Below are positions 17,535 to 31,996 of a stretch of 64,000 nucleotides of DNA, piece by piece. The position numbers were made by a program, and so were the translations under genes. Each line of letters opens with the position of its first letter. Position 1 is the first letter of the stretch. Source of the stretch: Halomonas sp. (lineage in GTDB: Bacteria > Pseudomonadota > Gammaproteobacteria > Pseudomonadales > Halomonadaceae). The notes beneath the pieces are model-generated. The model was not told the origin of the DNA. It worked only from the letters and a program-made list of their open reading frames with translations, and did no database searches. Location: positions 27,072 through 91,071 of the forward strand of contig JAFIFK010000082.1 of the NCBI GenBank assembly GCA_020832045.1, given 5' to 3'.

Positions 17535-17569
17535 AAAAACGCCCTAGCCGCTCAGGTTAGGGCGTTTTT
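17535..17569. terminator. Bidirectional terminator after the tRNA pair; contains the cgs stop codon
   Basis: AAAAACGCCCTAGCC-GCTCA-GGTTAGGGCGTTTTT. Confidence 0.85.
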
Positions 17570-20500
17570 CGTTGTCTCTCTCGTGTAGGCCAAGTTGTAT
17601 TTCGACATAATGCCCCTGGCCATCATCACGGAGTGTGATAACCGTGCTGGCCTGAAGGACTCCGTCGACGTGGGTGACCGGCGGGTGCTTCGCGGGGTCG
17701 ACCGCCTGCCGGATCGTAATGCAGTAGGTGGTGCCATGATAGCGATAGTGCAGCCGGACATGTGGCCACGCAGCGGGCAGACAGGGGGTTATTGTCAGCG
17801 TATTGCCAGCTTGATGAAGTCCAAGCAGCGACTCGCTGATGAGACGATACATCCAGCCTGCCGAACCGGTATACCAGCTCCAGCCACCTCGTCCAACGTG
17901 GGGCGGTGCAGAATAGATATCGGCCGCCATCACGTAGGGCTCTAGGCGATATCTGGCCATGTCAGCGTCAGATCGTGAATGATTAATGGGATTGAGCATG
18001 TCAGTCAGCTGCCAGGCTCGCTCGCGCTGGCCGAGACGGGCATACGCCATTGCCGCCCAGATGGCAGCGTGAGTGTACTGCCCACCATTCTCCCGTACCC
18101 CTGGCACATAGTCGCGAATATAGCCGGGAGAGGGAGTAGCCTTATTGAAAGGCGGGGTGAGCAATTGGACCAGTTGTGATTTGGGATGGACCAAGTGAGT
18201 GAAGACTGCTTCCATCGCCCGCTCGGCCCGCTGCGGGTCGCCGGCGCCCGAGAGCACCGCCCAGCTTTGCGAGATCGAGTCGATGCGGCATTCGCTGCCT
18301 GCCGCCGTCCCTAGCGGGGTGCCGTCGTCGAAGTAGGCGCGGCGATACCAGTCGCCGTCCCAGGCGTTCAGGTTCAGACTGGTGCTCAGCGTTCGGCGAG
18401 ATGTCCGGCAGCTTTCCGCAGTGTCGGCATCACCGTAGCGGTCCGCCAACTGACTGAACTCCTCGAGTACCTGGCACAGGAAAAAACCCAGCCAGACACT
18501 TTCGCCTCGACCCTTGATGCCTACCCGGTTCATTCCATCATTCCAATCACCCGAGCCCATCAGCGGCAGGCCGTGCTCACCGAGCCGCAGCCCGTGGCGA
18601 AGGGCGAGCAGAGCGTGCTGGTACAGGCTGGCCTCGCCGAGGGTACGACTGGGAAGGTCGTAGTAGGCCTCATCGTCTTCGCCAACGGCGCGTCCCTCGA
18701 GGAAGGCTACCGGCGTATCGAGAACGTCGACGTCATCGGTCAGCCTCACATAGCGACACAGCGCTAGCGGCAGCCACAGATAGTCGTCGGAACAGCGTGT
18801 CCGCACGCCGCGGCCTTGCGGTGGGTGCCACCAGTGCTGCACGTCCCCTTCGCGGAATTGACGGCTGGCACTCAGCAGTAACTGGTCGCGCAGGCGCTCG
18901 GGCATGGCATGCGCCAACGCCATGCAGTCCTGCAACTGATCACGAAAGCCGAAGGCGCCGCCGGACTGGTAGTAGCCGCTGCGCGCCCAGAGGCGACAGG
19001 CCAGGGTCTGGTAGAGCAACCAGCCGTTGGCCATGACGTTCAGCGCTGGGTCAGGGGTCTCGATCTGCAGTGCGCCAAGGGTGTGCCGCCAGTGTGCCTT
19101 TACGTTATCCAGGGCCTGGCTGGCGGCTCCTGTTAAGCGGTAACGCTGAATCAAGGCTTTGGCCTGCTCGCTGTTACTGCCCACGCCGAGCCGAAAGATC
19201 ACGTCACGATTTTCGTCTGGTGCCAGTGAGAGCTTGATCTGCAATGCAGCGCATGGGTCGATACCGGCCCCAACCGTGCCGGAAAGATGGGTCCGCTCCA
19301 GGGCGGCGGGTCGCTGCATGCTGCCATTACGACCGATAAACTCCTGGCGATCGCCGCTCAGCGTTCGCGTAGGGTCGTCCACATCGAAAAAGGCCACCTG
19401 CTCGCTCAGTTCGCGGTGAAAGACGTTGCGAGCCAATAGGGCGCCACTTGCGGCGGCGACTTCGGTGGTCACATGCATGGCCGACTTGGTAGGGAGATCG
19501 CCGAGAACCCATTCGACGTAGCCGGTCACCGCCAAATGGCGCGCACGCGCCGACCGGTTGTGAATCTTGAGCACCGAAAACTTGATGCTGGCATCGAGCG
19601 CAACGTAGACCCAGAGTTGCGTGCTGATGCCGTCCTGCTCCGATTCGAAGACGCTGTAGCCAAAACCATGGCGCACCAGGTAGTGGGAGTCGCTGTGCAC
19701 GGGAAGGGGAGTGGGAGACCAGAGATGGCCGTTCTCCTCGTCACGCAGATAGATCGCTTCGCCGCAGGTGTCGCTGACCGGATCGTTGTGCCATGGCGTC
19801 AGTCGATTTTCATGAGCATTGACCCCCCAGGTGTAGCTGCCACCACTTTCCGATATCACACAGCCGAAATCGGGGTTGGCAATGACATTGACCCAAGGCG
19901 CGGGAGTTCGCTGACCAGGGGAAAGCTGGATGACATACTCCTGGCCATCGGCGCTGAATCCCCCCAGCGGATTGCTCAGGATCAACTCCTCAGACGCCGA
20001 CGGCGCGAGGACTGGCGTGGGCCGCCGGTTGTTCTTCAGTGCCAGAGCGGGAGGTCTCGCGTCGTGTCGCTGGCGCTGGTCGAGCTGCTCTTCCAGGCTG
20101 CCGTGGCTATCGATGATGATGGCCCTGGCCACTGCCTGGAACATCAGCCGGTCCTCGTCGGCGATGTGTTCCAGAGGCCGCACGAAAATACCGCCGGGGC
20201 GATCTATCTGACTGGCGCCACTGCCCGAGGCGATCAGCCCCAATATCTGTTCCTGCAGTTGCTGGCGGTAGACGGCATACTCCTCGTTCCAGATCACCAG
20301 GTCGACGGCGAGGCCCTGCAGGCGCCAGTGAGCATGCGCTTGGATGAGTTGGCGTACGAGAGCGAGGCTGGCACTGCTACCCACCCGCAGCAGCACTATT
20401 GGCAGGTCGCCGGAGATGGCGTAGCTCCACAGCGCTGATTGCCCGCGGCGGTTGGCAGCGACAATGGCAGGTTCGGCGCGCAGTGCAGGGTGCGCATAGA

Positions 20501-23500
20501 TGACTGCACTGGCCAGTCTTGCATGCAGTTGCGCATCGGCTTCACTGGCATCGAGCTGCTCGAGGACCACCTGGCGATGGGTCCAGGTCAGCTCAAAGAC
20601 ACGATCACTCAGGTGACGATCCTGGTACTTGGCGATCAAGCACTCGGCTTCGGTGCGCGAGCCTGCAACTCCTGTCACCAGGTCGAGTGTTACGGCGTGA
20701 TGGGGTTCGATACTGAGGCATCGCCGGATGGCGGTGATCGGATCGAGAACGGCTCCGGCATGTCCGGACAGGTCGCCGGGGAGATCCATGGCCGAGGGTG
20801 ACGAGGCATCTCGACAACGACCGATAAAAGCCAGCCGGTCGGTTTCGTAAGAGGCAGCAGGGCTGGGGATGTCACGAACCACAAGAAGCTGGAACATCCA
20901 TGCCGAGCTCTCTTCCGGGGCCTGGGAGCGACGGTGACAGAGAATCGCGCTATGGGGTGCAATGATTTCGGTCTGTACGAATAGATTGCTGAAGGCGGGA
21001 TGCATGGCATCAGTAACAGCGGGCGCGATGACCACCTCGCTGTAGCTGGTAACCTCGATCTCGCGTCGCTTTGCAGTGTGGTTGGTCAGGCGTATTCGGC
21101 GCAACTCGATATCATCTTCGGGCGATACGGCAATCTCGGTATAGGTCTCCAGCTCGCCATTGCCCAGGTTGTCACGGCGCCTGTACTCGGCGCGTCCCTC
21201 GGCAAAGATCGCCTGGTAGTGGGTGCTGGGAGTGAGTGTCGGCTGGAAGGCGTTAGACCAGTAATGGCCGCTGTCGAGGTCACGCAGGTAGCAGAAGGTG
21301 CCATAGTGGTCGCGCGTCGGATCCTCTCGCCACCGCGTGACTGCGAGGTCTCGCCAGCGGCTATAGCCACCGCCGGCATTAGTGACCATGACGTGATAGC
21401 GACCATTCGATAGCAGTTGCACCGCCGGGGTCGGGGAATCGGCGCTGTCGAACACCCGTATGGGCGGATCGCTGCGGTCGCTTGCGGTGCTTACGTCCGC
21501 CAAGCGCGCAACATGAGTGAATAGCGCGCTGGCCCGCGGGATACGTTCCTGCAGGAGAAGTAGCGCAGCCTGCACATGGCGATCGGCACAGAAGCGGCGC
21601 TGCATGGGCTGGTCCAGCAGCAGGTAAGCCAGGGCCAGTAGGCTCATGCCCTGGTGGTGTGCCATGAAGGAACGCACCAAGGTCTTGTGCGACCCGCGGC
21701 GTTGGCGCGCAGGGCTGTAGTCGACGGCTTCGAACAGCCCGAACTTGCCCATTACTCCCTCATGTGCCAGGCGTTGCAAGTTCTGGCAGGCAGCGGTGGG
21801 CGCGATCATCAGCGCCATCACCGAGGCGTAGGGGGCGATGACCAGGTCCTCGGCCAGGCCACGCTTCAGCCCCAGGCCGGGGGCGCCAAAGGCTCGGTAT
21901 TGATAGTTGAGCTTGGCATCGACGGTATTGTAGGCGGACTCGGAAATCCCCCATGGCACGCCGCGCTGCTTGCCATAGTCGATTTGACGAGCAATGGCGG
22001 CGTGAGATGTCTGATCGAGCAGGGTATTGGGATAGGTCGGCATCACCAGCATTGGCATCAGGTATTCGAACATCGAGCCACTCCATGACAGCAGTACCGG
22101 CTTGCCGCCAGCGCGGGTCAGCAGTCGGCCCAGGCTGAACCAGCTCTCCTTGGGTAACTGTCCAAGGGCGATGCCCACGAAGCTGCTGAGCCTTGACTCC
22201 GATGCAAGCAGGTCGTAATAGCCGCTGTCGAGTCGCTCTTCGGTGACGTTATAGCCGATGGCGAGAAGGTGCTTGGTGCGGTCGAAGAGAAAGCCATACT
22301 CCACCTGGGCGAAGTCGATGCAGGTGGCGGCGAGTTGCTCGAGAGTGGCGATACGCTGCTGGGCTTGCCCCTTGGCCTGGTCGATTGCAGCACGCAGCGG
22401 GTCGGTCGGGGTATCAGCCATGCTGTGCTGTGGCGGCGCCGGTAGGAGAGCATCGAGCCTGGCGACATCGCGAAGCGTAGGCATCGCAAGTGCTGCAACG
22501 TCCTTGCCGAATGATGAGTCGTCCAGCATGGAAGGCTGGGTCAGCCAGGGTGCCAGTTCGTCGAGTTCGGCGAGCATGGCTTGAGTCTGCTGAATCAAGC
22601 TTTGCGCCCACTGATGGGCGTTTTCCTCCAGCAGTGGAGACTGCGGTTGCGCGCCGACCTCAGGCTGCACGGTCGTGGCTAGCGGGCTCAGGGCGTCGGC
22701 CAGAAGGGCTCCGGCGCCGCATAGTCGGGTCAGTGCATGATGCCAGGCCGTAAGAGGGTCCTGCTGGGTCGGGCAAGAGGTGAGCAGAACGTGGCGATAG
22801 GCGTCCAGAGGGGCACGAACGGTGTCCCCACCACACTCCTCGATGACCGACAACGTATCGCGCAGCCCTTCCCAGCAGCGTTGAGGCAATATCGGCGCAT
22901 CGGCGACTTCGAGCAAGCCACGACTCAGCGTCAGCAGGTGGCCCGACAGATTGCCGCTATCGACACTTGAGACATAGTGTGGCGGCAGTGGCTTCAGGCT
23001 TTGGGTGTCGTACCAGTTGTAGAAATGGCCACGGTAGCGGGGCAGGATCGCGAGAGTGTCCAGGGTCTGTTGGCTACGTGTCATGAGGCCCTTGGCGCTG
23101 AGATAGCCGAAATCATAGGCTGCCAGGTTGGCCAGCAGGGCCATCCCGATGTTGGTAGGCGAGGTGCGATGGGCTAGTTCGATCTGGCGGTACGCCTGAA
23201 TGTTATCGGGTGGCAGCCAGTGGTCCTCGGCGTTGAGCGTCTGTTCGAAGAACGCCCAGGTGCGCCTGGCCAGATGTTGCAGAAATCGGGTTTGCACGGC
23301 ATCCAGCGGCCAGGGATGAACTGTTTTTGGCTGGCTCAGCCACCAGGCCACACCCGGGGCGATGCTCCACAGCACCAGGAAGGGAGCTGCGGCGAATAGC
23401 GCGAGTGGCTGGTGGAAGGTCAGCAAGAGGGTTACGCCGCCGGACAGCGCAGGGGCGACCCACATCTGCTTGAACATCTCATACAGGCCCTTGATGCCAT

Positions 23501-26396
23501 TGCGTGGGGTGACCGCTCGGTAAGCACTCGAGGGAACCCACTCCAGCAAGTGCTGATGGCTGACATGGCGTCGCCATAACGTGCGCAGAATTGCGTCAAG
23601 ATGGATATAAGCTTCGTACGGTAGGCAGCTGAGCTGGAAGCCGAGTTGCGCAGTGCGTCCTGCCAATTCATGCGCCATGCAGGCCAGGTGCTGCCCTGGG
23701 GGCCGCTCTGAGGGCTTGTTGAATAGCCCAGGCATCGCTTCGCAGATCATCGGGATCAGCAGCAGTGACACAGCGGCGATGGTCCATATCCAGGCCGTGG
23801 CAGGCTGCGTCCACCCTACTAACAGCAGTGTCGTCAAGGCGATAGGGAAGAGGCTGCGTCGCAAGTTGTCCAGCAGCTTCCAGCGTGACAGCAGCGATAG
23901 GGCATTGGCGGTCTGGCTGCCTGACGTGCTGAGTCCCGTGGGGGGATGTCGACCCAACCAGCCGATGAGTTGCCAGTCGCCGCGTATCCAGCGGTGGCGG
24001 CGTTTAGCATCATCGAGGTAATGGCTCGGATGATCCTCATAGAGAAAAATATCGCTCACCAGGCCGGAGCGGGCATAGCAGCCCTCAAGCAGGTCATGGC
24101 TGAGAATGAGGTTCTCGGGAAAGCGCCTGCCTATCGCGAGTTCGAAGGCATCGACATCGTAAATGCCCTTACCGATATATGAGCCTTCGTCGAACAGATC
24201 CTGATAGACGTTGGAATTGGCCTGGGTATAAGGATCGATGCCTGCCTCGCCACCGAACAGCCTTGCATAGCGCGAACGGTTAGCGCCTTCCAGGCTGGCT
24301 TCGATGCTGGGCTGAAGAATCCCGTGGCCAGCCGTTACCAGACCCGTCAGGGGAGCGTGATGAGGGCGGTTGAGAGGGTGGCTCATGGTGCCTACCAACT
24401 GACGAGCGGTATCGCGGGGGAGCTGAGTGTCACTGTCCAAGGTAATGACATAGGCCACTTCGCGCAGCACCGAGAGATCACCGACAATCAGCGAGAAGCG
24501 CTGTTGGCCGTTGGTCTCCGGTTTGCTGCGTAGTAGGTCGTTGAGATCCGAGAGCTTGCCTCGCTTGCGCTCGTGCCCCATCCAGCGGCATTCCTTAGCG
24601 TTCCAGCGCCGCTCGCGGTGAAATAGGTAGAAGGGTGTCGCTGTACCGCCGAGCTCGCGCCACTGCTTGGCATAGGTGGCATTCAGGCGAGTGATGCCGT
24701 CATGGGCCAGCGTCAGCAGGGCGCCGTCGTCGGGTAGTATGGCCTCCAGTGCGTCGCTGAAATCGGTCAGCAGGGCATGATGTATATGGGCATCCAGGTT
24801 GGCGAGAAAGCGCACTTCGAGAGACTCCAGCAAGCATTCGATGCTTGCCGGGTCCGTCAACAGGGTCGGCGTTACGATCAGAGTACGGCAATCCGAGGAG
24901 ATGCCGTTTTTGATCTCCATGCGTGGTAGTGTGCGTGGCGCCTGTAAAAGTGTCATCAGCCGGTTGGTAAGCGTTACCGCAGCCTGGCTGGAAACCAGCG
25001 GCGTCAGCATGACGATGATTGCCATCCACCATAGCGGGGGGGAGTGAGGGAGGTGCGTCCAGGCAGTCATCAGCAGGCCAGCGCTTATCAGCAGCGTCAA
25101 GCCCCCTATCCCACCGAGATAGAGGGGCAGGCCCTGTTGCTGGAGTACTCTGTTGAGTCGCTGTCGCAGTGAGCGATGCGCCTTGGCCTGTCGAATCAGC
25201 TCAGCCAAGCCGCAGTCGACGAGATAGTAGCCCACATGTCGAGTACGCTTGGAGTCTGAGGCCGATTGGCTGTTTGATTTAGCGAGCCCAAGTGTCAGGG
25301 CCGCCACCTCACTTTCACTAAGTGGAGATTGAGCGGCAAGGTTTTCCACCACATGCCGATAGCGGTCACGGGTGGCAAAGTCCATGCGCGGGTAGATACC
25401 GCTGGGATCGTCGCGCAAGATCTGTTCGACCGCACTCTGTGATTCAACAAAGGCTTGCCAATCGATGGCGGCAATCATTCTGAGGCTACCAATGCTGTTG
25501 CTTACCGAAACCTGGTCGGATGCCTGCTGCTGATTGGCAATCAATACGTGTTGTTCGATGGTGGTGCCAGAATCGGACAACCGTTGCTCTACCCATGACA
25601 ACGGTAGGGAGAGAGCCGGACCGCGTCCCTGCAAACGTCGTGACAGTACGGCCACGAACTCGCTACTCATTAGTGGCTTCGAGCGGGCCATGTCGGCGAC
25701 CTGCAGAATCAGGCTCTTGGGGTCCTGCTCGGCCGTGGCGATCATGCGTTCCGCCCAGGCCTCTGCCAGTAGTCGCTCGCTGAGACCTGCATCAATACGG
25801 TCAGATACCTGACGAAGATTCTCGATTAGCGCCAGACGTAGCATGATGGGGATCGCCCAAAGCTCACCCAGCGTCAGCGTGACGTTACGCTGATAAGCCG
25901 TCACGAAGCGGCTCAAGTTGTCGAAGGCCAGGTGACCGTCGCCGTGAGCGATGGCTTCCATGGCAATGTCGTGAACGCGTGGGCGGCCTGCGGAAGGTCC
26001 GCTTGACAGTCTGGGTAAGGACGCACTGTAGCCAGGGGGCAGATGCCGCTTAGCGGTCAGCATTTGCTCTTCTAGCAGGTGGAAATTGTCCAGCAGTCCT
26101 TCGCCAGCAGGTGAAATACGTTGCTGTTCAGCTACTGCCCCTGTTAACCGATTGCAGCCAGCAACTAGCGCCTGCTCATTGGCACGGAGACGCGGAAGCA
26201 GTTGATCCGGTGCATTTCCTGTCGCTAGGTGATGGCTGTTGGCTAGATCTTCTCCATGCGCCTCCATCTGAGCGGCGCTGAGCAACTCCGCACGAGGGAG
26301 AGAAGATGCCTCGTCGTTAGATACAGGCTGGTGTCGAGTATTAAGCCACTGTCGCAGGCGATGGCCGTGCTCACGGAAGGCGGACAAGAGAGCCAA
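17544..26396 (-). CDS. cgs: Cyclic beta-1,2-glucan synthase (Cgs/ChvB/NdvB type; GT84 + cyclization domain + GH94-like phosphorylase domain)
   Basis: 2950 aa. VITLDSDTQL, SHDLLEG and RRHRWIRGDWQ glycosyltransferase motifs; ESRLSSF...SWSGSMFEYLMP...WGISESAYN middle domain; SGGAFGFRDQLQD and GDWNDG GH94 motifs; internal TM clusters. Start codon uncertain (TTG). Confidence 0.92.
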   Translation of the reverse strand: MALLSAFREHGHRLRQWLNTRHQPVSNDEASSLPRAELLSAAQMEAHGEDLANSHHLATGNAPDQLLPRLRANEQALVAGCNRLTGAVAEQQRISPAGEGLLDNFHLLEEQMLTAKRHLPPGYSASLPRLSSGPSAGRPRVHDIAMEAIAHGDGHLAFDNLSRFVTAYQRNVTLTLGELWAIPIMLRLALIENLRQVSDRIDAGLSERLLAEAWAERMIATAEQDPKSLILQVADMARSKPLMSSEFVAVLSRRLQGRGPALSLPLSWVEQRLSDSGTTIEQHVLIANQQQASDQVSVSNSIGSLRMIAAIDWQAFVESQSAVEQILRDDPSGIYPRMDFATRDRYRHVVENLAAQSPLSESEVAALTLGLAKSNSQSASDSKRTRHVGYYLVDCGLAELIRQAKAHRSLRQRLNRVLQQQGLPLYLGGIGGLTLLISAGLLMTAWTHLPHSPPLWWMAIIVMLTPLVSSQAAVTLTNRLMTLLQAPRTLPRMEIKNGISSDCRTLIVTPTLLTDPASIECLLESLEVRFLANLDAHIHHALLTDFSDALEAILPDDGALLTLAHDGITRLNATYAKQWRELGGTATPFYLFHRERRWNAKECRWMGHERKRGKLSDLNDLLRSKPETNGQQRFSLIVGDLSVLREVAYVITLDSDTQLPRDTARQLVGTMSHPLNRPHHAPLTGLVTAGHGILQPSIEASLEGANRSRYARLFGGEAGIDPYTQANSNVYQDLFDEGSYIGKGIYDVDAFELAIGRRFPENLILSHDLLEGCYARSGLVSDIFLYEDHPSHYLDDAKRRHRWIRGDWQLIGWLGRHPPTGLSTSGSQTANALSLLSRWKLLDNLRRSLFPIALTTLLLVGWTQPATAWIWTIAAVSLLLIPMICEAMPGLFNKPSERPPGQHLACMAHELAGRTAQLGFQLSCLPYEAYIHLDAILRTLWRRHVSHQHLLEWVPSSAYRAVTPRNGIKGLYEMFKQMWVAPALSGGVTLLLTFHQPLALFAAAPFLVLWSIAPGVAWWLSQPKTVHPWPLDAVQTRFLQHLARRTWAFFEQTLNAEDHWLPPDNIQAYRQIELAHRTSPTNIGMALLANLAAYDFGYLSAKGLMTRSQQTLDTLAILPRYRGHFYNWYDTQSLKPLPPHYVSSVDSGNLSGHLLTLSRGLLEVADAPILPQRCWEGLRDTLSVIEECGGDTVRAPLDAYRHVLLTSCPTQQDPLTAWHHALTRLCGAGALLADALSPLATTVQPEVGAQPQSPLLEENAHQWAQSLIQQTQAMLAELDELAPWLTQPSMLDDSSFGKDVAALAMPTLRDVARLDALLPAPPQHSMADTPTDPLRAAIDQAKGQAQQRIATLEQLAATCIDFAQVEYGFLFDRTKHLLAIGYNVTEERLDSGYYDLLASESRLSSFVGIALGQLPKESWFSLGRLLTRAGGKPVLLSWSGSMFEYLMPMLVMPTYPNTLLDQTSHAAIARQIDYGKQRGVPWGISESAYNTVDAKLNYQYRAFGAPGLGLKRGLAEDLVIAPYASVMALMIAPTAACQNLQRLAHEGVMGKFGLFEAVDYSPARQRRGSHKTLVRSFMAHHQGMSLLALAYLLLDQPMQRRFCADRHVQAALLLLQERIPRASALFTHVARLADVSTASDRSDPPIRVFDSADSPTPAVQLLSNGRYHVMVTNAGGGYSRWRDLAVTRWREDPTRDHYGTFCYLRDLDSGHYWSNAFQPTLTPSTHYQAIFAEGRAEYRRRDNLGNGELETYTEIAVSPEDDIELRRIRLTNHTAKRREIEVTSYSEVVIAPAVTDAMHPAFSNLFVQTEIIAPHSAILCHRRSQAPEESSAWMFQLLVVRDIPSPAASYETDRLAFIGRCRDASSPSAMDLPGDLSGHAGAVLDPITAIRRCLSIEPHHAVTLDLVTGVAGSRTEAECLIAKYQDRHLSDRVFELTWTHRQVVLEQLDASEADAQLHARLASAVIYAHPALRAEPAIVAANRRGQSALWSYAISGDLPIVLLRVGSSASLALVRQLIQAHAHWRLQGLAVDLVIWNEEYAVYRQQLQEQILGLIASGSGASQIDRPGGIFVRPLEHIADEDRLMFQAVARAIIIDSHGSLEEQLDQRQRHDARPPALALKNNRRPTPVLAPSASEELILSNPLGGFSADGQEYVIQLSPGQRTPAPWVNVIANPDFGCVISESGGSYTWGVNAHENRLTPWHNDPVSDTCGEAIYLRDEENGHLWSPTPLPVHSDSHYLVRHGFGYSVFESEQDGISTQLWVYVALDASIKFSVLKIHNRSARARHLAVTGYVEWVLGDLPTKSAMHVTTEVAAASGALLARNVFHRELSEQVAFFDVDDPTRTLSGDRQEFIGRNGSMQRPAALERTHLSGTVGAGIDPCAALQIKLSLAPDENRDVIFRLGVGSNSEQAKALIQRYRLTGAASQALDNVKAHWRHTLGALQIETPDPALNVMANGWLLYQTLACRLWARSGYYQSGGAFGFRDQLQDCMALAHAMPERLRDQLLLSASRQFREGDVQHWWHPPQGRGVRTRCSDDYLWLPLALCRYVRLTDDVDVLDTPVAFLEGRAVGEDDEAYYDLPSRTLGEASLYQHALLALRHGLRLGEHGLPLMGSGDWNDGMNRVGIKGRGESVWLGFFLCQVLEEFSQLADRYGDADTAESCRTSRRTLSTSLNLNAWDGDWYRRAYFDDGTPLGTAAGSECRIDSISQSWAVLSGAGDPQRAERAMEAVFTHLVHPKSQLVQLLTPPFNKATPSPGYIRDYVPGVRENGGQYTHAAIWAAMAYARLGQRERAWQLTDMLNPINHSRSDADMARYRLEPYVMAADIYSAPPHVGRGGWSWYTGSAGWMYRLISESLLGLHQAGNTLTITPCLPAAWPHVRLHYRYHGTTYCITIRQAVDPAKHPPVTHVDGVLQASTVITLRDDGQGHYVEIQLGLHERDNEKRPNLSG

Positions 26397-26405
26397 GGCG
26401 AGCGC

Positions 26406-26480
26406 CTAGCGCAAGCCGAGGACAGACAGTACCACCAGCACGATGACTACCGCGCCGACGATCCATACGATATTGTTCAT
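26406..26480 (-). CDS. 24-aa hydrophobic micropeptide (MNNIVWIVGAVVIVLVVLSVLGLR)
   Basis: Manual translation; AGGTGG RBS upstream; a single TM helix; ends 9 bp before the cgs start. Confidence 0.75.
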   Translation of the reverse strand: MNNIVWIVGAVVIVLVVLSVLGLR

Positions 26481-26571
26481 GTGATCCACCTATGTCAGCT
26501 GGGCCTGCTTTGCATCCCATAGGGATGCGGCAGACGGTGACGGAATAATAGATTGCGAGAGGGATTCCATC

Positions 26572-26587
26572 GGTGTGCTAGCCAACC
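26572..26587 (-). promoter_or_regulatory. Candidate Crp-family box A (GGTTGGCTAGCACACC) with -10 TATTAT at 26545-26550
   Basis: Exactly 21 nt between box and hexamer; upstream of micropeptide 26406-26480 and cgs. Confidence 0.6.
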
Positions 26588-26601
26588 CACAACAGATTGA
26601 A

Positions 26602-26676
26602 TTAGCGATTGGCGAACAACATCAGAGCGATGAAGAGGAGGATGATGGCAACCGAGATCGCTGCATTCTTGAGCAT
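26602..26676 (-). CDS. 24-aa hydrophobic micropeptide (MLKNAAISVAIILLFIALMLFANR)
   Basis: Manual translation; GGAGG RBS 11 nt upstream; a single TM helix with basic ends. Confidence 0.65.
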   Translation of the reverse strand: MLKNAAISVAIILLFIALMLFANR

Positions 26677-26814
26677 CAGGAAGATCGCCTCCAATCTGCC
26701 GATACGCGTTCTATGGGGTGGCGCCCCCTCCTTGCGGCGCGCAGTGCAACTTACCTGTATAGGCACTTCCTTCGCCACACCTGGAGAATGTTATACGGTA
26801 GGGCATATGAAAAC

Positions 26815-26830
26815 TGTGCGCTACCGAACG
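26815..26830 (-). promoter_or_regulatory. Candidate Crp-family box B (CGTTCGGTAGCGCACA) with -10 TAACAT at 26788-26793
   Basis: 21-nt spacing; upstream of micropeptide 26602-26676. Confidence 0.68.
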
Positions 26831-26872
26831 TTGAGGGGTGCCGGTCTGGTATTTCCTTCCAACTACCATGGT

Positions 26873-27418
26873 TTAGAAGTTGTAGCCCAGACCCACCGTG
26901 TAGGCCCAAGCCCCGTCATCCTGGAACGCATCTGAAGCATCGCTGGTACTGCTGAAGAAGAATTGATACTCGACGCGGGCGAGGAAATAGGTGTTTGTCT
27001 GTACGTAATGCTTTATGCCTGTTTCCAGACCGGCGAAGGCGCTGTCCTTGACGCCGTCGCCGTAGATGCCGCCGAGGCTGCCGCCAACGAAGGGACGCGT
27101 GTTATCTTCTAGAAACTGATAGTTAAAATAACCACGTGTCGAGCCGTTCCAGAAGTCGTCCTTGATACTTTCGCCCTCGATACTGGCGTAATTGATGCTT
27201 TGGCGGACGCCGGCAACTGTATTGTCTCGCAAGTACCAGCCCAGGTCCCCGGTCACGCCAAAGCTGCCACTATCGAAGTTCCGGTCACTGCTGCCTGTCC
27301 CGGAAAGGGAGAACTCTCGGTCGCCCTCTTGTGGGCCGAACGTTGCTGTTTGGGCAAATGCTGCCATGGGGAGTGCGCTGAGAAGCAGGGTGATTGCCGG
27401 TGCAATAAATTTGCTCAT
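26873..27418 (-). CDS. Small outer-membrane beta-barrel protein (OmpA/OmpW-like, about 8 strands)
   Basis: Sec signal peptide (...PMAAFA), alternating aromatic/Gly strands, C-terminal GLGYNF BAM signal. Confidence 0.8.
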   Translation of the reverse strand: MSKFIAPAITLLLSALPMAAFAQTATFGPQEGDREFSLSGTGSSDRNFDSGSFGVTGDLGWYLRDNTVAGVRQSINYASIEGESIKDDFWNGSTRGYFNYQFLEDNTRPFVGGSLGGIYGDGVKDSAFAGLETGIKHYVQTNTYFLARVEYQFFFSSTSDASDAFQDDGAWAYTVGLGYNF

Positions 27419-27672
27419 GATATATGTCCTTTTATGATTTAATTAGGTGCCCTTGTATAAGCGTAGATTTATGCTGTTGATTACTCGACGCGACAGTTCT
27501 CAAGAGGAGAAAAGGTGTCGTGTGCCAAATGCGCTCGGCATATCGGAAGAATTGTAGGTGCGGGCTTCGGATTGCGTCCGCGTATTGGTTGGAATTGTTT
27601 CCCTAGAGCGGGGCCGATAATATTTAGATTTCTGTGTCTTTTAGAGTTTTACTCGCCAGACCAGGCGGCATC

Positions 27673-27688
27673 TGTGCGTCAACCCACG
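27673..27688 (-). promoter_or_regulatory. Candidate Crp-family box C (CGTGGGTTGACGCACA), weak -10 TAAAAC at 27646-27651
   Basis: One good half-site, 21-nt spacing to an AT-rich hexamer; about 255 nt upstream of the beta-barrel gene. Confidence 0.42.
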
Positions 27689-27877
27689 TAAGCGCCACTA
27701 ATATGGAAGGCTGTGGCAGCTCTTTCTTTCGTCAACGACGGCGCGTCAGCGACGAGCACAGCAAACCAGCCACAAAGGCGATGCCAAAGGAAGTCTTTAC
27801 TCACTGAGTAACGCATGGTTGCTCGAGGGAGGCTGGATGACAGGAGGCGCTTCCGTATGGCAGCGCCAGCGGGGGAT

Positions 27878-28120
27878 TCATGAGTTTGCCTCTGGGGCGA
27901 TGGCGTTTATGTCTTGGCTCATCACGTCGTCGTCGCCTTTGGCGGCGCTCACACTTTCGTCTATTTCTTCGCTGACATGGGCTACAAGTAATGCTTCAGG
28001 CAAGCGTGGGGGGGTGAAGGGAAAGCCGTGCTGCTGTTCGCCTGGCTCACGCTCGGGCAGGGGAGTGAATTTCTCATAGACAGGCGCGTGAGGAATGCTC
28101 GGCTGGATCGGGAGTGGCAT
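27878..28120 (-). CDS. Hypothetical 80-aa Pro-rich/acidic protein
   Basis: GAGG RBS before ATG 28120 (MPLPIQPSIPHAPVYEKF...); preceded by box D. Confidence 0.5.
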   Translation of the reverse strand: MPLPIQPSIPHAPVYEKFTPLPEREPGEQQHGFPFTPPRLPEALLVAHVSEEIDESVSAAKGDDDVMSQDINAIAPEANS

Positions 28121-28202
28121 GGTGACCTCGTATCGCTGTCCGTACTTCACGATGCTGTGAAGTATCGGTAGCACTACTATGGTGGATTGCCAGGTCGCCG
28201 TC

Positions 28203-28218
28203 GGTGCGCTAACAAACT
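28203..28218 (-). promoter_or_regulatory. Candidate Crp-family box D (AGTTTGTTAGCGCACC) with -10 CATAGT at 28176-28181
   Basis: 21-nt spacing; upstream of the 80-aa ORF. Confidence 0.55.
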
Positions 28219-28276
28219 TACTCCGCCATGGGTGGGATGGCGATGGAAGAACGTCAGTAGATCGTTATCGACCGCC

Positions 28277-30037
28277 TCATGAATAGTTGGGCAGCATATC
28301 CACCGTGAAGAATTGATAGCCGTTGCACCCTTGGCGCTTGGTGTGGTACATGGCGGTATCTGCACGATGCATCAGGTCATCCGGCGTAGTGCCACTGTCG
28401 GGGTAAAGACTGATGCCTAGGCTGGCGGTGATATTGATCATATGGTCCTTCGCTTTGTGTGGTGGCAGCAAAGCGAAAAGTATGGCTTCTGCTACCTGGC
28501 GGACATCGTCAAGGCCATGAATATCGGTCAATAAAATTACGAATTCGTCACCGCCAAGCCGGCTGACCGTATCGGTATCACGCACGCAGCTTTTCAATCG
28601 ACCGGCAATGGACTTTAACAATGCGTCTCCGGCAGCATGTCCCAGGCGATCATTGATAGCCTTGAAGCCATCGAGGTCGACGAATAACAGCGCTACCTGG
28701 AGTCGATGCCGCTGGGCAAGGCCGATAGCGCGTGACAGGCGCTCTTCAAGCAGCATTCGATTGGGAAGGTCGGTCAAGGCATCATGCTGTGCCAGGTGAT
28801 ACATTCGCCTTGCGACGGCAGGTGACTGATTGGCGTGATGAAAAACGATGACCGTACCTGTGACATGACCGTCTCGATCATGAATCGGTGCCGCAGAATG
28901 CTCGATTGGCAACTCGCATCCACCGTTACCAATCAACATTGCTCCCATCGACAGGCCGACGACACGGTTTTCTTCAATAGCCAGCCTAGCGGGGTCGGTG
29001 GCCGTTTGGCGTGATTTGGCATCGATGATACGAAAGACGTCGGTAATCATCCTGCCGTGGGCGCTATCTTGGGACCACCCCGTCATTTCCTCGGCAACCC
29101 GGTTGAGATAGGTCACTCGACATCCAGTGTCGGTCGAGATGACCCCATCGCCGATTGTGCTCAGCGTGACCTGGGCGCGTGCCCTCTCGATATAGAGGGC
29201 CTCTTCCGTAGCGCTCAGCATATGGTCGCCATGCTTACGGGGAGTGATGTCTTCGATCGTATGGACGTAGCCCCGTGCTTCAGGCAGGCGAGCTGCATTG
29301 ATGTTGACCCAGACGATGCTGGTGTCGGGACGGACCATACGGGCCTCGATTTGGCAGGTGGTGCTGGTATCGAGAGCCCTTTTCCATTCCTGGATGACGC
29401 GGGGGCGATCATCTGCATGCAGAGGGGCCGTCCAGTGTTGATGCCACCAGAGCACCTCCGGCTGACCGCTGATATGACGGTAGCTGGCATTGCTGTAGCG
29501 GACGTTGCCGTACATGTCGGTTGTGAGGATGCCAATCGGCAGACTGTCACCCATGCCGGTGAGGAAGGGATCAAGGGATGAGAGCTTTCCCTGGGCATGG
29601 TGCAACGCCGTATCGAGCAGGTGCGGCAGCCAGTAAGCGTCGAGACGAGCTAACGTGAAGGTGTCATGGGCACCATGGCGGCGGATTTCCTCTTGTGAAG
29701 GACCGTTATCGCTACCGGCAAGGCCAATGCGAAGAGCTCTCGGTGCGACGATGGCGAGCTGCGCAAGAGCGGCGCGCCAGGGTATTTCAGGCAAGGTAAG
29801 GTCGCAAAGCACTATCGTGAATCGTTTATGTGAAAGCAGATGCAACGCCTGCCGTAGGTCGTTCGCTCGGGTAGTACTGTAATCTTTGTTGGCCCCCCGC
29901 AGAAAAGTCTCCAGGCTAGCCATCTCAGGTGTGCTGGGGCCAATCACCAGCACCTCGATAGAAGGCGGCTGCTGAGCAGTGTCTTGCGCATCGTAGGGTA
30001 GGTCGAGTTTCGGTTTTATCGTCATTGCTCGGCGCAT
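28277..30037 (-). CDS. Diguanylate cyclase: degenerate REC + PAS + PAS + GGDEF
   Basis: VLCDLTLPE receiver-like segment, two PAS-like repeats, AQHDALTDLPNR, RDTD I-site, SRLGGDEF; GGAG RBS. Confidence 0.9.
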   Translation of the reverse strand: MRRAMTIKPKLDLPYDAQDTAQQPPSIEVLVIGPSTPEMASLETFLRGANKDYSTTRANDLRQALHLLSHKRFTIVLCDLTLPEIPWRAALAQLAIVAPRALRIGLAGSDNGPSQEEIRRHGAHDTFTLARLDAYWLPHLLDTALHHAQGKLSSLDPFLTGMGDSLPIGILTTDMYGNVRYSNASYRHISGQPEVLWWHQHWTAPLHADDRPRVIQEWKRALDTSTTCQIEARMVRPDTSIVWVNINAARLPEARGYVHTIEDITPRKHGDHMLSATEEALYIERARAQVTLSTIGDGVISTDTGCRVTYLNRVAEEMTGWSQDSAHGRMITDVFRIIDAKSRQTATDPARLAIEENRVVGLSMGAMLIGNGGCELPIEHSAAPIHDRDGHVTGTVIVFHHANQSPAVARRMYHLAQHDALTDLPNRMLLEERLSRAIGLAQRHRLQVALLFVDLDGFKAINDRLGHAAGDALLKSIAGRLKSCVRDTDTVSRLGGDEFVILLTDIHGLDDVRQVAEAILFALLPPHKAKDHMINITASLGISLYPDSGTTPDDLMHRADTAMYHTKRQGCNGYQFFTVDMLPNYS

Positions 30038-30131
30038 AGCTCACTCCATGAGTGCTACGTCAGCGTTAGACAAAGAGCCGTCGGGCTTGTACTCACCCCA
30101 GGCAAGGCTAACCAAGTCATCTATTGCGCTC

Positions 30132-30147
30132 TGTGCGTTAGCGTACA
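30132..30147. promoter_or_regulatory. Candidate Crp-family box E (TGTGCGTTAGCGTACA) shared by divergent promoters
   Basis: Near-perfect palindrome. Minus-strand -10 TAGCCT at 30105-30110 (21-nt gap, toward the DGC); plus-strand CTATACT at 30167-30173 (20-nt gap to TATACT, toward crp1). Confidence 0.75.
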
Positions 30148-30355
30148 GAGAATGTCGTCAACCCCCCTATACTGGTAGGCGCATGTTTCCATCGGTGTCG
30201 CTCGGTTGGAGTCTCCCTCGAAGGGGAGTTGCGTTGGGGCGGCACGGCTTCGACGTACTGCTACCCTCAGCATAAAGGCAGGATGAAGGCGTTATCCGTT
30301 TGGTGGCGCACATAGTCGTGACTAAGCTCCCCATGCTGGCGTACAAGGAGGCGGG

Positions 30356-31087
30356 ATGTCGGCACCACAATCGGCACCACAATATGACCCACGAAACCAG
30401 CTGCTGGCGCTGCTGCCGGAGGACGAGTTGGCGCGCCTGCAGCCTCACCTCGAGCGTGTGGCGTTGCCGCTGGGAAAGTCGCTGAGTGAATCAGGGGGAG
30501 TGATGCACCATGTCTACTTTCCTCTGGATGCCATTGTGTCTCTGTTGTGCGTGATGGAAAACGGTGCCTCTACGGAAATCGCGGTGGTGGGCAATGAAGG
30601 CATAGTCGGCGTGTCCTTGTTCATGGGGGGGGAAACGACACCGAGCAGGGCCATCGTGCAGAGTGCTGGCGAGGCCTACCGACTCAAGGGGCAACGAATC
30701 AAGGACGAGTTCTACCGCGCCGGCACGATGCAGCGGCTGCTGCTTCGCTATACCCAAGCGCTGTTGACGCAAATGGCACAGACGGCAGTGTGCAACCGCC
30801 ACCACTCGGTTGATCAGCAGCTTTGTCGTTGGTTGCTACTGAGTCTTGATCGGTTGCCGGGTGATCAGCTCATCATGACCCAGGAGCTGATTGCGAACAT
30901 GCTGGGGGTGCGCCGAGAAGGTGTCACGGAATCCGCGGGTAAACTCCAGCGTGCGGGACTGATTGCCTACCACCGCGGACATATCACGGTTATTGACCGG
31001 CCCGGTCTCGAGGCGAGGGTGTGCGAGTGTTATGCGGTTGTGAAGCGAGAGTATGATCGCTTGCTGGGCCCTGAGGCCTTGCTCTAG
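30356..31087 (+). CDS. Crp/Fnr-family transcriptional regulator (copy 1)
   Basis: Cyclic-nucleotide-binding-like beta-roll (VYFPLDAIVS, EIAVVGNEG), HTH TQELIANMLGVRREGVTESAGKL, C-terminal CECY; AGGAGG RBS. Confidence 0.92.
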   Translation: MSAPQSAPQYDPRNQLLALLPEDELARLQPHLERVALPLGKSLSESGGVMHHVYFPLDAIVSLLCVMENGASTEIAVVGNEGIVGVSLFMGGETTPSRAIVQSAGEAYRLKGQRIKDEFYRAGTMQRLLLRYTQALLTQMAQTAVCNRHHSVDQQLCRWLLLSLDRLPGDQLIMTQELIANMLGVRREGVTESAGKLQRAGLIAYHRGHITVIDRPGLEARVCECYAVVKREYDRLLGPEALL

Positions 31088-31111
31088 GCCGTGTCGCCTC
31101 CGGCTGTCGTC

Positions 31112-31127
31112 TGTACGCTAGCGTGCC
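31112..31127 (+). promoter_or_regulatory. Candidate Crp-family box F (TGTACGCTAGCGTGCC) with extended -10 TGcTAACCT (hexamer 31149-31154)
   Basis: 21-nt spacing; lies between the two crp genes, upstream of crp2. Confidence 0.65.
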
Positions 31128-31267
31128 GACTAACCATTTCCGTCATGCTAACCTGCAGTTATATCGCCCGGACACTTTAGTATTTCGGGATATCGGTCTG
31201 CAGTCGACATTGCAATTTCGAGATCTTGTTCATGCCGCTTGCCAGGTACGTCTATACCGGAGCAGCC

Positions 31268-31996
31268 ATGACACCCTCTCTCATCGTACCTGCCGCCAAC
31301 CAGCTGCTTTCCCGTATTCCCCCGCAAGAGCTTGCCGTCTTCATGATGGAGTCTGAGCCCGTCACCCTGACCTTTGGTGACGTATTAGTCGAGCCGGGAG
31401 CCGTCATCGAGAAGGTCTACTTTCCCATCGACAGCTTTATCTCGCTTATCGTTGGTCTCGATGATGGCGATACGTTGGAGGTGACGATGGCGGGACGTGA
31501 AGGCATGATGGGAGCCTCACTGTTGCTCGGTGTTCAGGAGTCTCCTCTGCGTGCCCTTGTCCAAGGTGGCGGGGCGGCCCTGTGCATTGAGGCCGCTCGG
31601 TTCCAGTCACTACTGCTGACCTGCCCGGTATTGCACAAGCGGTTACTGCGCTACCTGTATGTGCTCATGAATCAAATTGCCCATACGGTCGCATGTACCC
31701 ACTTCCATCAGGTTGAGGCACGCCTGGCGCGCTGGTTACTGATGACTCAGGATCGCGCCGGCTCCGATAGCTTGCAGCTGACGCATGAATTTCTTGCGGT
31801 CATGCTGGGCGTCAGGCGAGCCGGTATCACCCAGGCCGCAACGGCGCTGCAAGCCCGGGGGGTGATACGCTATCATCGTGGTAGCATCACGGTGATTGAT
31901 AGGGCGGGCCTGGTCGAAGCGTCATGTGGGTGTTATGCCCACGATTGCTCACTTTACGCGCAGGTGCTTGGCGCTCCGCTGGACCCTTCATCATAA
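31268..31996 (+). CDS. Crp/Fnr-family transcriptional regulator (copy 2)
   Basis: NQLLSRIP, VYFPIDSFIS, GREGMMG, HTH THEFLAVMLGVRRAGITQAATAL, CGCY. Start set at ATG 31268 (GGAG RBS); 31226 and 31232 are alternatives. Confidence 0.9.
   Translation: MTPSLIVPAANQLLSRIPPQELAVFMMESEPVTLTFGDVLVEPGAVIEKVYFPIDSFISLIVGLDDGDTLEVTMAGREGMMGASLLLGVQESPLRALVQGGGAALCIEAARFQSLLLTCPVLHKRLLRYLYVLMNQIAHTVACTHFHQVEARLARWLLMTQDRAGSDSLQLTHEFLAVMLGVRRAGITQAATALQARGVIRYHRGSITVIDRAGLVEASCGCYAHDCSLYAQVLGAPLDPSS

Follow-up and report, generated by a model that had tools for sequence, protein, structure and literature searches.

Predicted operators of Crp/Fnr-type regulators at class II spacing across a cyclic glucan synthase island of Halomonas sp.

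A 64,000-nucleotide (nt) stretch of Halomonas sp. DNA (assembly GCA_020832045.1, contig JAFIFK010000082.1, positions 27,072 to 91,071 of the forward strand; hereafter the window) carries an island (17544-31996) with genes for a cyclic beta-1,2-glucan synthase (cgs), a diguanylate cyclase (DGC), and two Crp/Fnr-type regulators, crp1 and crp2, and the question raised by this locus is what reads the CRP-like palindromes lying before its genes. A preliminary description of the window had listed six such 16-mers, each followed 21 nt later by a -10-like hexamer, and all six palindromes and all six hexamers were present exactly as read there. The boxes are probably operators at which the Crp/Fnr-type regulators encoded in the island itself (certainly the Crp1 type, possibly also Crp2) bring about class II activation. 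The motif, its clustering, its conservation, its -10 spacing, and its co-occurrence with the regulator gene were all observed; from them we infer binding of the box by Crp1, activation upon binding, the transcription starts, and the signal.

Boxes of the island and their rank in the genome

The boxes were recorded as 16-bp cores in window numbering, and their scores and whole-genome ranks were taken from a 20-mer matrix of foreign sites (see below):

26572..26587, minus strand: box 1, a weak site (rank 32, score 12.6) in the predicted promoter of micropeptide 1 and cgs
26545-26550, minus strand: -10 hexamer TATTAT, exactly 21 nt from box 1
26815..26830, minus strand: box 2, predicted promoter of micropeptide 2, strong (rank 5, score 19.7)
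26788-26793, minus strand: -10 hexamer TAACAT, 21 nt from box 2
27673..27688, minus strand: box 3, upstream of the beta-barrel gene, moderate by the foreign matrix (rank 10, score 16.0)
27646-27651, minus strand: hexamer TAAAAC of box 3, a poor -10
28203..28218, minus strand: box 4, predicted promoter of an 80-amino-acid (aa) open reading frame (ORF), moderate (rank 8, score 17.2)
28176-28181, minus strand: hexamer CATAGT, 21 nt from box 4
30132..30147, no strand assigned: box 5, strongest of all (rank 1, score 28.6), between the divergent DGC and crp1 genes
30105..30110, minus strand: -10 hexamer TAGCCT of the predicted DGC promoter, 21 nt from box 5
30168..30173, plus strand: -10 hexamer TATACT (in CTATACT) towards crp1, 20 nt from box 5
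30297..30312, plus strand: seventh box CGTTTGGTGGCGCACA, within the leader of crp1, 44 nt ahead of its ATG (rank 3, score 20.3)
31112..31127, plus strand: box 6, predicted crp2 promoter, strong (rank 2, score 21.2)
31149..31154, plus strand: -10 hexamer TAACCT of crp2, with TGc directly before it

The hexamers of boxes 1 to 6, all read in gene orientation, fitted the form TANNNT in four of six cases. The seventh box had been missed in the preliminary description and was found by a scan without being in the six-site matrix; no -10 was present at 20 to 22 nt from it.

The source genome comprised 4.08 Mb with 62.6% G+C, and its 4.08 million positions were ranked. With leave-one-out matrices of five boxes each, the omitted box ranked 1, 12, 17, 34, and 68 genome-wide, and box 3 ranked 235; with the foreign-site matrix, the seven island sites took ranks 1, 2, 3, 5, 8, 10, and 32, and all of them were intergenic. 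The six palindromes are not chance occurrences, and the site before the beta-barrel gene, already taken for a weaker one, was indeed so by score, leave-one-out rank, and hexamer. The remaining high matches in the genome (C16:341, C54:3803, C33:3913, and others) were located in coding sequence or lacked a -10 and were treated as chance. A simple scan of 26300-31400 for sigma-70 promoters with a -35 element returned none (3.1 expected from shuffles). An Rfam scan of the region gave no match, and therefore no riboswitch explains the leaders, which were roughly 50-220 nt long by the predicted transcription starts of the window.

The palindrome and its promoter geometry beside crp1 homologues

The same palindrome was carried across more than 100 gamma- and betaproteobacterial loci with 70-95% identical Crp1, and a set of 80 loci (859 kb; Crp1 homologues 72-88% identical) from Halomonadaceae, Rhodocyclales, Burkholderiales, Xanthomonadales-like groups, Pseudomonas, and others was compared. 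In this set, the six-site matrix gave 267 matches of at least 12 bits, corresponding to 0.31 matches/kb against a background of about 0.015/kb in the source genome, and the matches clustered immediately before and after the crp homologue. Word counts in the 400 bp upstream of crp homologues, made free of any matrix, recovered the palindrome de novo: the top enriched 8-mers (TATGTTCG, TATGTACG, TAGCGTAC, TGTACGCT, TATGTGCG, GCGCTAGC, and TAGCGCAC) were all fragments of one single palindrome. The same sites recurred in a second locus set lying largely outside the matrix training set, and distant Rhizobium homologues (36-38% identity) still had TGTACGCTATTGCACA about 120 bp upstream of the respective gene.

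Iteration over the foreign sites gave the consensus T-n-TGT(G/A/T)CG(C)(T)(A)(G)CG(C/T/A)ACA-n-A, or T-n-TGTnCG-N4-CGnACA-n-A in compact form, with half-site position 5 being C in 522/568 and position 6 being G in 555/568. The box had been proposed as TGT(G/A)C-N6-G(C/T)ACA; a variant Crp-type box it was, and its exact form is to be corrected to TGTnCG-N4-CGnACA with a flanking T and A.

Non-coding sequence, defined as sequence left unmarked as coding by a crude mask on G+C at third codon positions, made up 49% of the loci and held 86% of the sites. This bears on a different origin of the boxes, namely that they are remnants of duplicated promoter cassettes or of a small mobile repeat to which no factor binds, which would be in line with the lower G+C of the island and its patchy distribution (see below). 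Such an origin is highly improbable, given that the likeness between sites was limited to 20 bp plus the -10 with unrelated flanks, and that the same box, mostly non-coding, stood before unrelated genes in distant genera.

The distance from box to -10 was counted from the 16-bp core on both flanks of 290 foreign sites (580 flanks): TANNNT occurred at exactly 21 nt in 91 flanks, compared with 15 at 20 nt, 17 at 22 nt, and about three at each other offset. With the hexamer at -12 to -7, the 21-nt offset puts the dyad at -41.5, a placement relative to the -10 only. The oriented logo of the foreign sites displayed no conserved -35 element and a strong G-A immediately promoter-proximal to the core. 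The class II spacing read from the six island boxes was thereby reproduced as a sharp peak, and the sites had two features of class II promoters, i.e., a position near -41.5 as judged from -10 spacing and a weak core promoter without -35.

The geometry also bears on the possibility that the sites are repressor operators, the promoters being blocked by a bound Crp-type protein. The position of the seventh box, downstream of the crp1 -10, is typical of a repressor, and some Crp/Fnr members do repress; repressor sites, however, need no single helical-phase distance upstream of a -10, and a rigid 21 nt to a weak -10 without -35 is the signature of class II activation, which makes repression quite unlikely. 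Under class II activation, a Crp dimer on T-n-TGTnCG-N4-CGnACA-n-A, centered 41.5 bp upstream of the start, would replace the missing -35, and the bound dimer would recruit RNA polymerase to the weak TANNNT -10 elements.

The co-occurrence of box and regulator gene was assessed in 81 Halomonadaceae genomes, 23 of which had a Crp1-type gene (E value 1e-70 or better). The pattern GTNCGNNNNCGNACA-N21-TANNNT was present in 12 of these 23 (24 matches) versus five of the 58 genomes without Crp1 (six matches), with a Fisher p of 5e-5 (1.3e-4 without the source genome), and many of the matches adjoined the crp gene. Genomes without Crp1 served as the null; the reversed pattern was left unused because of its different dinucleotide make-up.

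Crp1, Crp2, and other Crp/Fnr regulators

The two regulators of the island were as follows:

30356..31087, plus strand: Crp1, with recognition helix GVRREGVT and a CxCY tail
31268..31996, plus strand: Crp2, with helix GVRRAGIT, 42% identical to Crp1

Crp1 matched PF00027 and PF13545 above cut-off; Crp2 matched PF13545 above cut-off and PF00027 below it (18.5 versus 27.5 bits). The cyclic nucleotide-type beta-roll, the dimerization helix, and the HTH_Crp_2 domain, which together define the Crp/Fnr superfamily, were found. The predicted model of Crp1 had a mean local confidence (pLDDT) of 91.5 and the canonical CRP/FNR fold, with template modeling scores of 0.73-0.75 to MtbCRP, GlxR, and FNR at an identity of at most 21%. 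NtcA was the best PDB sequence match of Crp1 (7e-5), and no NCBIfam equivalog was found for it; at least 8000 database proteins matched Crp1, and the names among the matches listed were all generic (Crp/Fnr family regulator, CRP-like cAMP-binding protein, and helix-turn-helix domain protein).

In 104 close Crp1 homologues, C146, N147, H150, C223, and C225 were invariant, C157 and Y226 were each kept in 103, and the helix GVRREGVT was nearly invariant; Crp2 retained C146, H150, C223, C225, and Y226. This conservation suggests a Cys3-His metal or redox site joining hinge and C-terminal helix. Crp2 was a Halomonadaceae paralogue standing directly after crp1 wherever that flank was present. Because Crp2 homologues always stood beside crp1, the contribution of Crp2 is inseparable from that of Crp1 by genomic association. 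The earlier proposal that both resident Crps read the variant box is accordingly supported for the Crp1 type, since the motif tracked Crp1 genes and the helix was confined in this genome to Crp1 and Crp2, and the share of Crp2 would stay merged with it.

Several points weigh against control by the island's own regulators: (i) boxes 1 and 3 were low-scoring; (ii) the hexamers TAAAAC of box 3 and CATAGT of box 4 did not fit TANNNT; (iii) the six boxes had served as seed of the foreign matrix, which was therefore not fully independent, while the k-mer and spacing tests were independent of them; (iv) the distance from box 5 to the TATACT of crp1 was 20 nt here and 17-20 nt in relatives, with the hexamer missing in others; and (v) among the 13 Crp/Fnr paralogues of the source genome, 11 were encoded besides Crp1 and Crp2. 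The last point, together with the outer TGT...ACA common to the CRP box, would fit binding of the boxes by another host paralogue (CRP/Vfr-like or FNR/ANR-like), with the crp1 neighborhood being incidental. That is unlikely: the motif tracked Crp1-type genes across gamma- and betaproteobacteria, usually directly upstream of them; box plus promoter followed the presence of Crp1 among the Halomonadaceae genomes; the RR(E/A)G(V/I)T helix and CxCY tail occurred only in Crp1 and Crp2, whereas the remaining paralogues had ETVSR, VHVSR, or ETVGR, typical of other box types; and half-site positions 5 and 6 were CG rather than the A of TGTGA.

Control by the Crp1 type was further set against known regulators. 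In E. coli, CRP acts in class II manner on a TGTGA-N6-TCACA box at -41.5. The system described here resembled it in the 16-bp symmetric site with outer TGT...ACA, the -41.5 center by -10 spacing, the lack of a -35, the CRP fold, and the R-E pair opening the recognition helix, but differed in the inner half-site (CG, not A), in the helix (RREGVT, not RETVGR), and in the C-terminal CxCY and the C-x3-H of the C-helix, which are absent from CRP. A cyclic AMP (cAMP)-CRP regulon run by CRP/Vfr orthologues was ruled out by the C5/G6 box and the RREGVT/RRAGIT helices. FNR and ANR read a TTGAT-N4-ATCAA box, mostly at -41.5, and share with the present case the class II geometry, the four-base central spacer, and frequent autoregulation, but they have another half-site and an E--SR recognition helix not seen here. 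No Cys was found in aligned residues 14-64 of Crp1 or 11-61 of Crp2, where an N-terminal Cys cluster for a [4Fe-4S] center was sought; its lack and the different box ruled out the FNR type.

Clr of Sinorhizobium meliloti, which has helix RPKVNR and binds cAMP and cyclic GMP, reads HGTYHC-N4-GRWACA (PMC10187061); this is likewise a Crp-type box with a four-base variable center and a degenerate fourth position, but it has C6/G11, whereas CG stood at 5/6 and at 11/12 here, so that positions 6 and 11 were reversed, and the Clr type was ruled out on this ground (PMC10187061). CgrA uses the CRP box (PMC4681086), and the motif described for RedB (rcc01561), a non-palindromic AT-rich 12-bp one, is unlike the present box (PMC9603854). 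A wiring of Crp/Fnr regulators to a diguanylate cyclase recalls Clp, Bcam1349, and DPR-1/DPR-2; the last two form a pair of about 240 aa in Cycloclasticus that binds cyclic di-GMP (c-di-GMP) and has aromatic-degradation targets (PMC8547461), whereas the cyclase here is a predicted target only, and no matching box is reported for DPR (PMC8547461). The literature search, in which phrase searches on 'Crp/Fnr' were ineffective owing to the slash, found no paper with this consensus and, as analogues, only DPR-1/2, RedB, Clr, and CgrA, all with other boxes. No curated family, solved structure, or paper was found for the protein branch or the box, in agreement with the first impression that such a programme had not been described. 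The Crp/Fnr class II activator is a known type; the private box and the family-wide regulon are what appears to be new.

Predicted targets and conserved spacers

The target genes predicted in the window were as follows:

26406..26480, minus strand: micropeptide 1 (mp1), 24 aa, hydrophobic, with copies of 83-96% identity next to crp1 in further Halomonadaceae
17544..26396, minus strand: cgs, cyclic beta-1,2-glucan synthase, 2950 aa, 9 bp after mp1
26602..26676, minus strand: micropeptide 2 (mp2), 24 aa, hydrophobic, an ORF read from sequence
26873..27418, minus strand: outer-membrane beta-barrel-like protein, 181 aa, with a weak OprF-domain match below cut-off
27878..28120, minus strand: acidic small protein, 80 aa, with its start moved to the ATG at 28120
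28277..30037, minus strand: DGC of REC-like/PAS/PAS/GGDEF composition by Pfam, with GGDEF and RxxD intact

The units switched on in the window would be mp1-cgs, mp2, the beta-barrel gene, the 80-aa ORF, the DGC, crp2, and probably crp1. That most island units stand under the variant box at class II spacing, as first proposed, is supported by motif, spacing, footprints, and co-occurrence. The mp1 orthologues of relatives had strong sites. Cgs matched the GH94 supersandwich, GH94 catalytic, and glucoamylase-like domains above the Pfam cut-off, with a sub-threshold GT2-type match, and its homologues stood directly after the box in five other loci. A weak terminator-like hairpin (26392-26410) overlapped both the stop codon of mp1 and the TTG at which cgs starts, and it could modulate read-through from mp1 to cgs. 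No homologue of mp2 was detected in the Crp1 loci. The beta-barrel protein was 86-87% identical in loci L084 and L085, where the orthologues had their own sites. For the small acidic protein, the GTG at 28174 lay upstream of the predicted +1, and the translation start was therefore set to the ATG at 28120. This ORF, counted among the predicted targets (box 4 upstream) but called an orphan, had an 81-aa homologue at the same place in L085, which shared EQQHG(F/Y)PF...RLPE and the acidic tail and had its own site (score 21.0) about 80 nt before the ORF.

DGC homologues were found in or beside 27 of the 80 Crp1 loci. The ORFs following foreign sites included 127 Crp genes in 67 loci, 37 PAS-GGDEF cyclases in 25, and six cyclic glucan synthases in five; further recurrent targets were genes of BON-domain, OmpA-family, CsbD-like, DUF3309, PRC-barrel, and DUF883 proteins, glycine-zipper lipoproteins, a phospholipase-D-type (cardiolipin synthase-like) enzyme, a cyclopropane fatty-acid synthase, and a phasin. 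In the source genome, a phasin gene outside the window (Phasin_2, C46:26454-26978; C46:26262-26978 with its box) was preceded by box GGTGTGCTGGCGCACA (score 20.1), with 20 nt from this box to a perfect TATAAT; beyond the island, no other convincing regulon member was found, and this gene would belong to the same set. Contrary to what had been supposed, the programme is not self-contained: the phasin gene carries the box elsewhere, and the regulon is widespread as a trait of the family. Its description as a c-di-GMP programme would reach no further than the cyclase, the only link being that the GGDEF gene is a conserved neighbor and a predicted target.

The candidate signal would be sensed at the family-invariant Cys3-His site, or would be c-di-GMP made by the co-regulated cyclase. 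On a wider reading, to which we lend somewhat less than even credence, CxCY-type Crp/Fnr proteins of gamma- and betaproteobacteria may be the master activators of an unrecognized but widely distributed stress regulon of envelope, storage, and dormancy-like functions, acting through a private box at -41.5 and switched by c-di-GMP or by the Cys3-His site (redox or metal) peculiar to the family; the members proposed are BON, CsbD, DUF883, DUF3309, phasin, cardiolipin and cyclopropane-lipid enzymes, and cyclic glucan and c-di-GMP synthesis. If true, the general stress responses run by sigma-S and EcfG would have a counterpart under a transcription factor; the gene content overlapped with theirs (BON/OsmY-like, DUF883/ElaB-like, CsbD, cyclopropane fatty-acid synthase, and small membrane proteins), control here being by a predicted DNA-binding activator at -41.5 and not by an alternative sigma factor. 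A generically named branch of regulators would gain a specific DNA box, a promoter architecture, and a coherent target set, making its function directly testable; cyclic beta-glucan synthesis outside Rhizobiales would gain a regulatory handle; and many tiny membrane or stress proteins of unknown function would be assigned to one programme.

The island had a G+C content of 55-61% versus 63% in the flanks, and this, together with the patchy distribution of Crp1, indicates an accessory module that probably moves horizontally. Within the same genus, the Crp1 gene was present in three of six genomes.

The two spacers flanking crp1 were also aligned among Halomonadaceae. In the DGC-crp1 spacer of five of them, the conserved blocks were box 5, CTATACTG (the crp1-side -10 block, invariant in the five relatives), and the seventh box, conserved as TCCGTTTGGTGnCGCACATA. 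Of 15 relatives, 12 had TANNNT at an offset of exactly 21 nt on the side of the box 5 orthologue that faces the cyclase or mp1. With 21 nt held on the divergent side and a variable spacing on the crp1 side, box 5 would mainly drive the divergent gene, and direct activation of crp1 is uncertain for the same variability. The seventh box, a second conserved site though an imperfect one, lies in the leader of crp1 and probably acts there as a brake on expression by negative autoregulation. The idea that the Crps activate themselves is supported for crp2, with box 6 at its predicted promoter, and takes a more complex form for crp1.

In the crp1-crp2 spacer of six Halomonadaceae genomes, box 6 was the best conserved block, and the invariant columns were those of the box together with G68, A71, and T75 of alignment A1 (the G of TGn and, in the -10, A2 and T6); they formed conserved islands amid otherwise diverged intergenic DNA. 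The crp2 promoter box (31110-31129, and its counterparts in L081-L085 and L013) had the proximal half GCGTGCCGA rather than the consensus GCGCACAGA, and this half was conserved in several Halomonadaceae; it may serve to lower the affinity or to accommodate a mixed Crp1/Crp2 dimer. Downstream of the predicted crp2 start, a leader block at 31194-31214 (CTGCAGTCGACAT, including a GTCGAC palindrome) was invariant in the six genomes.

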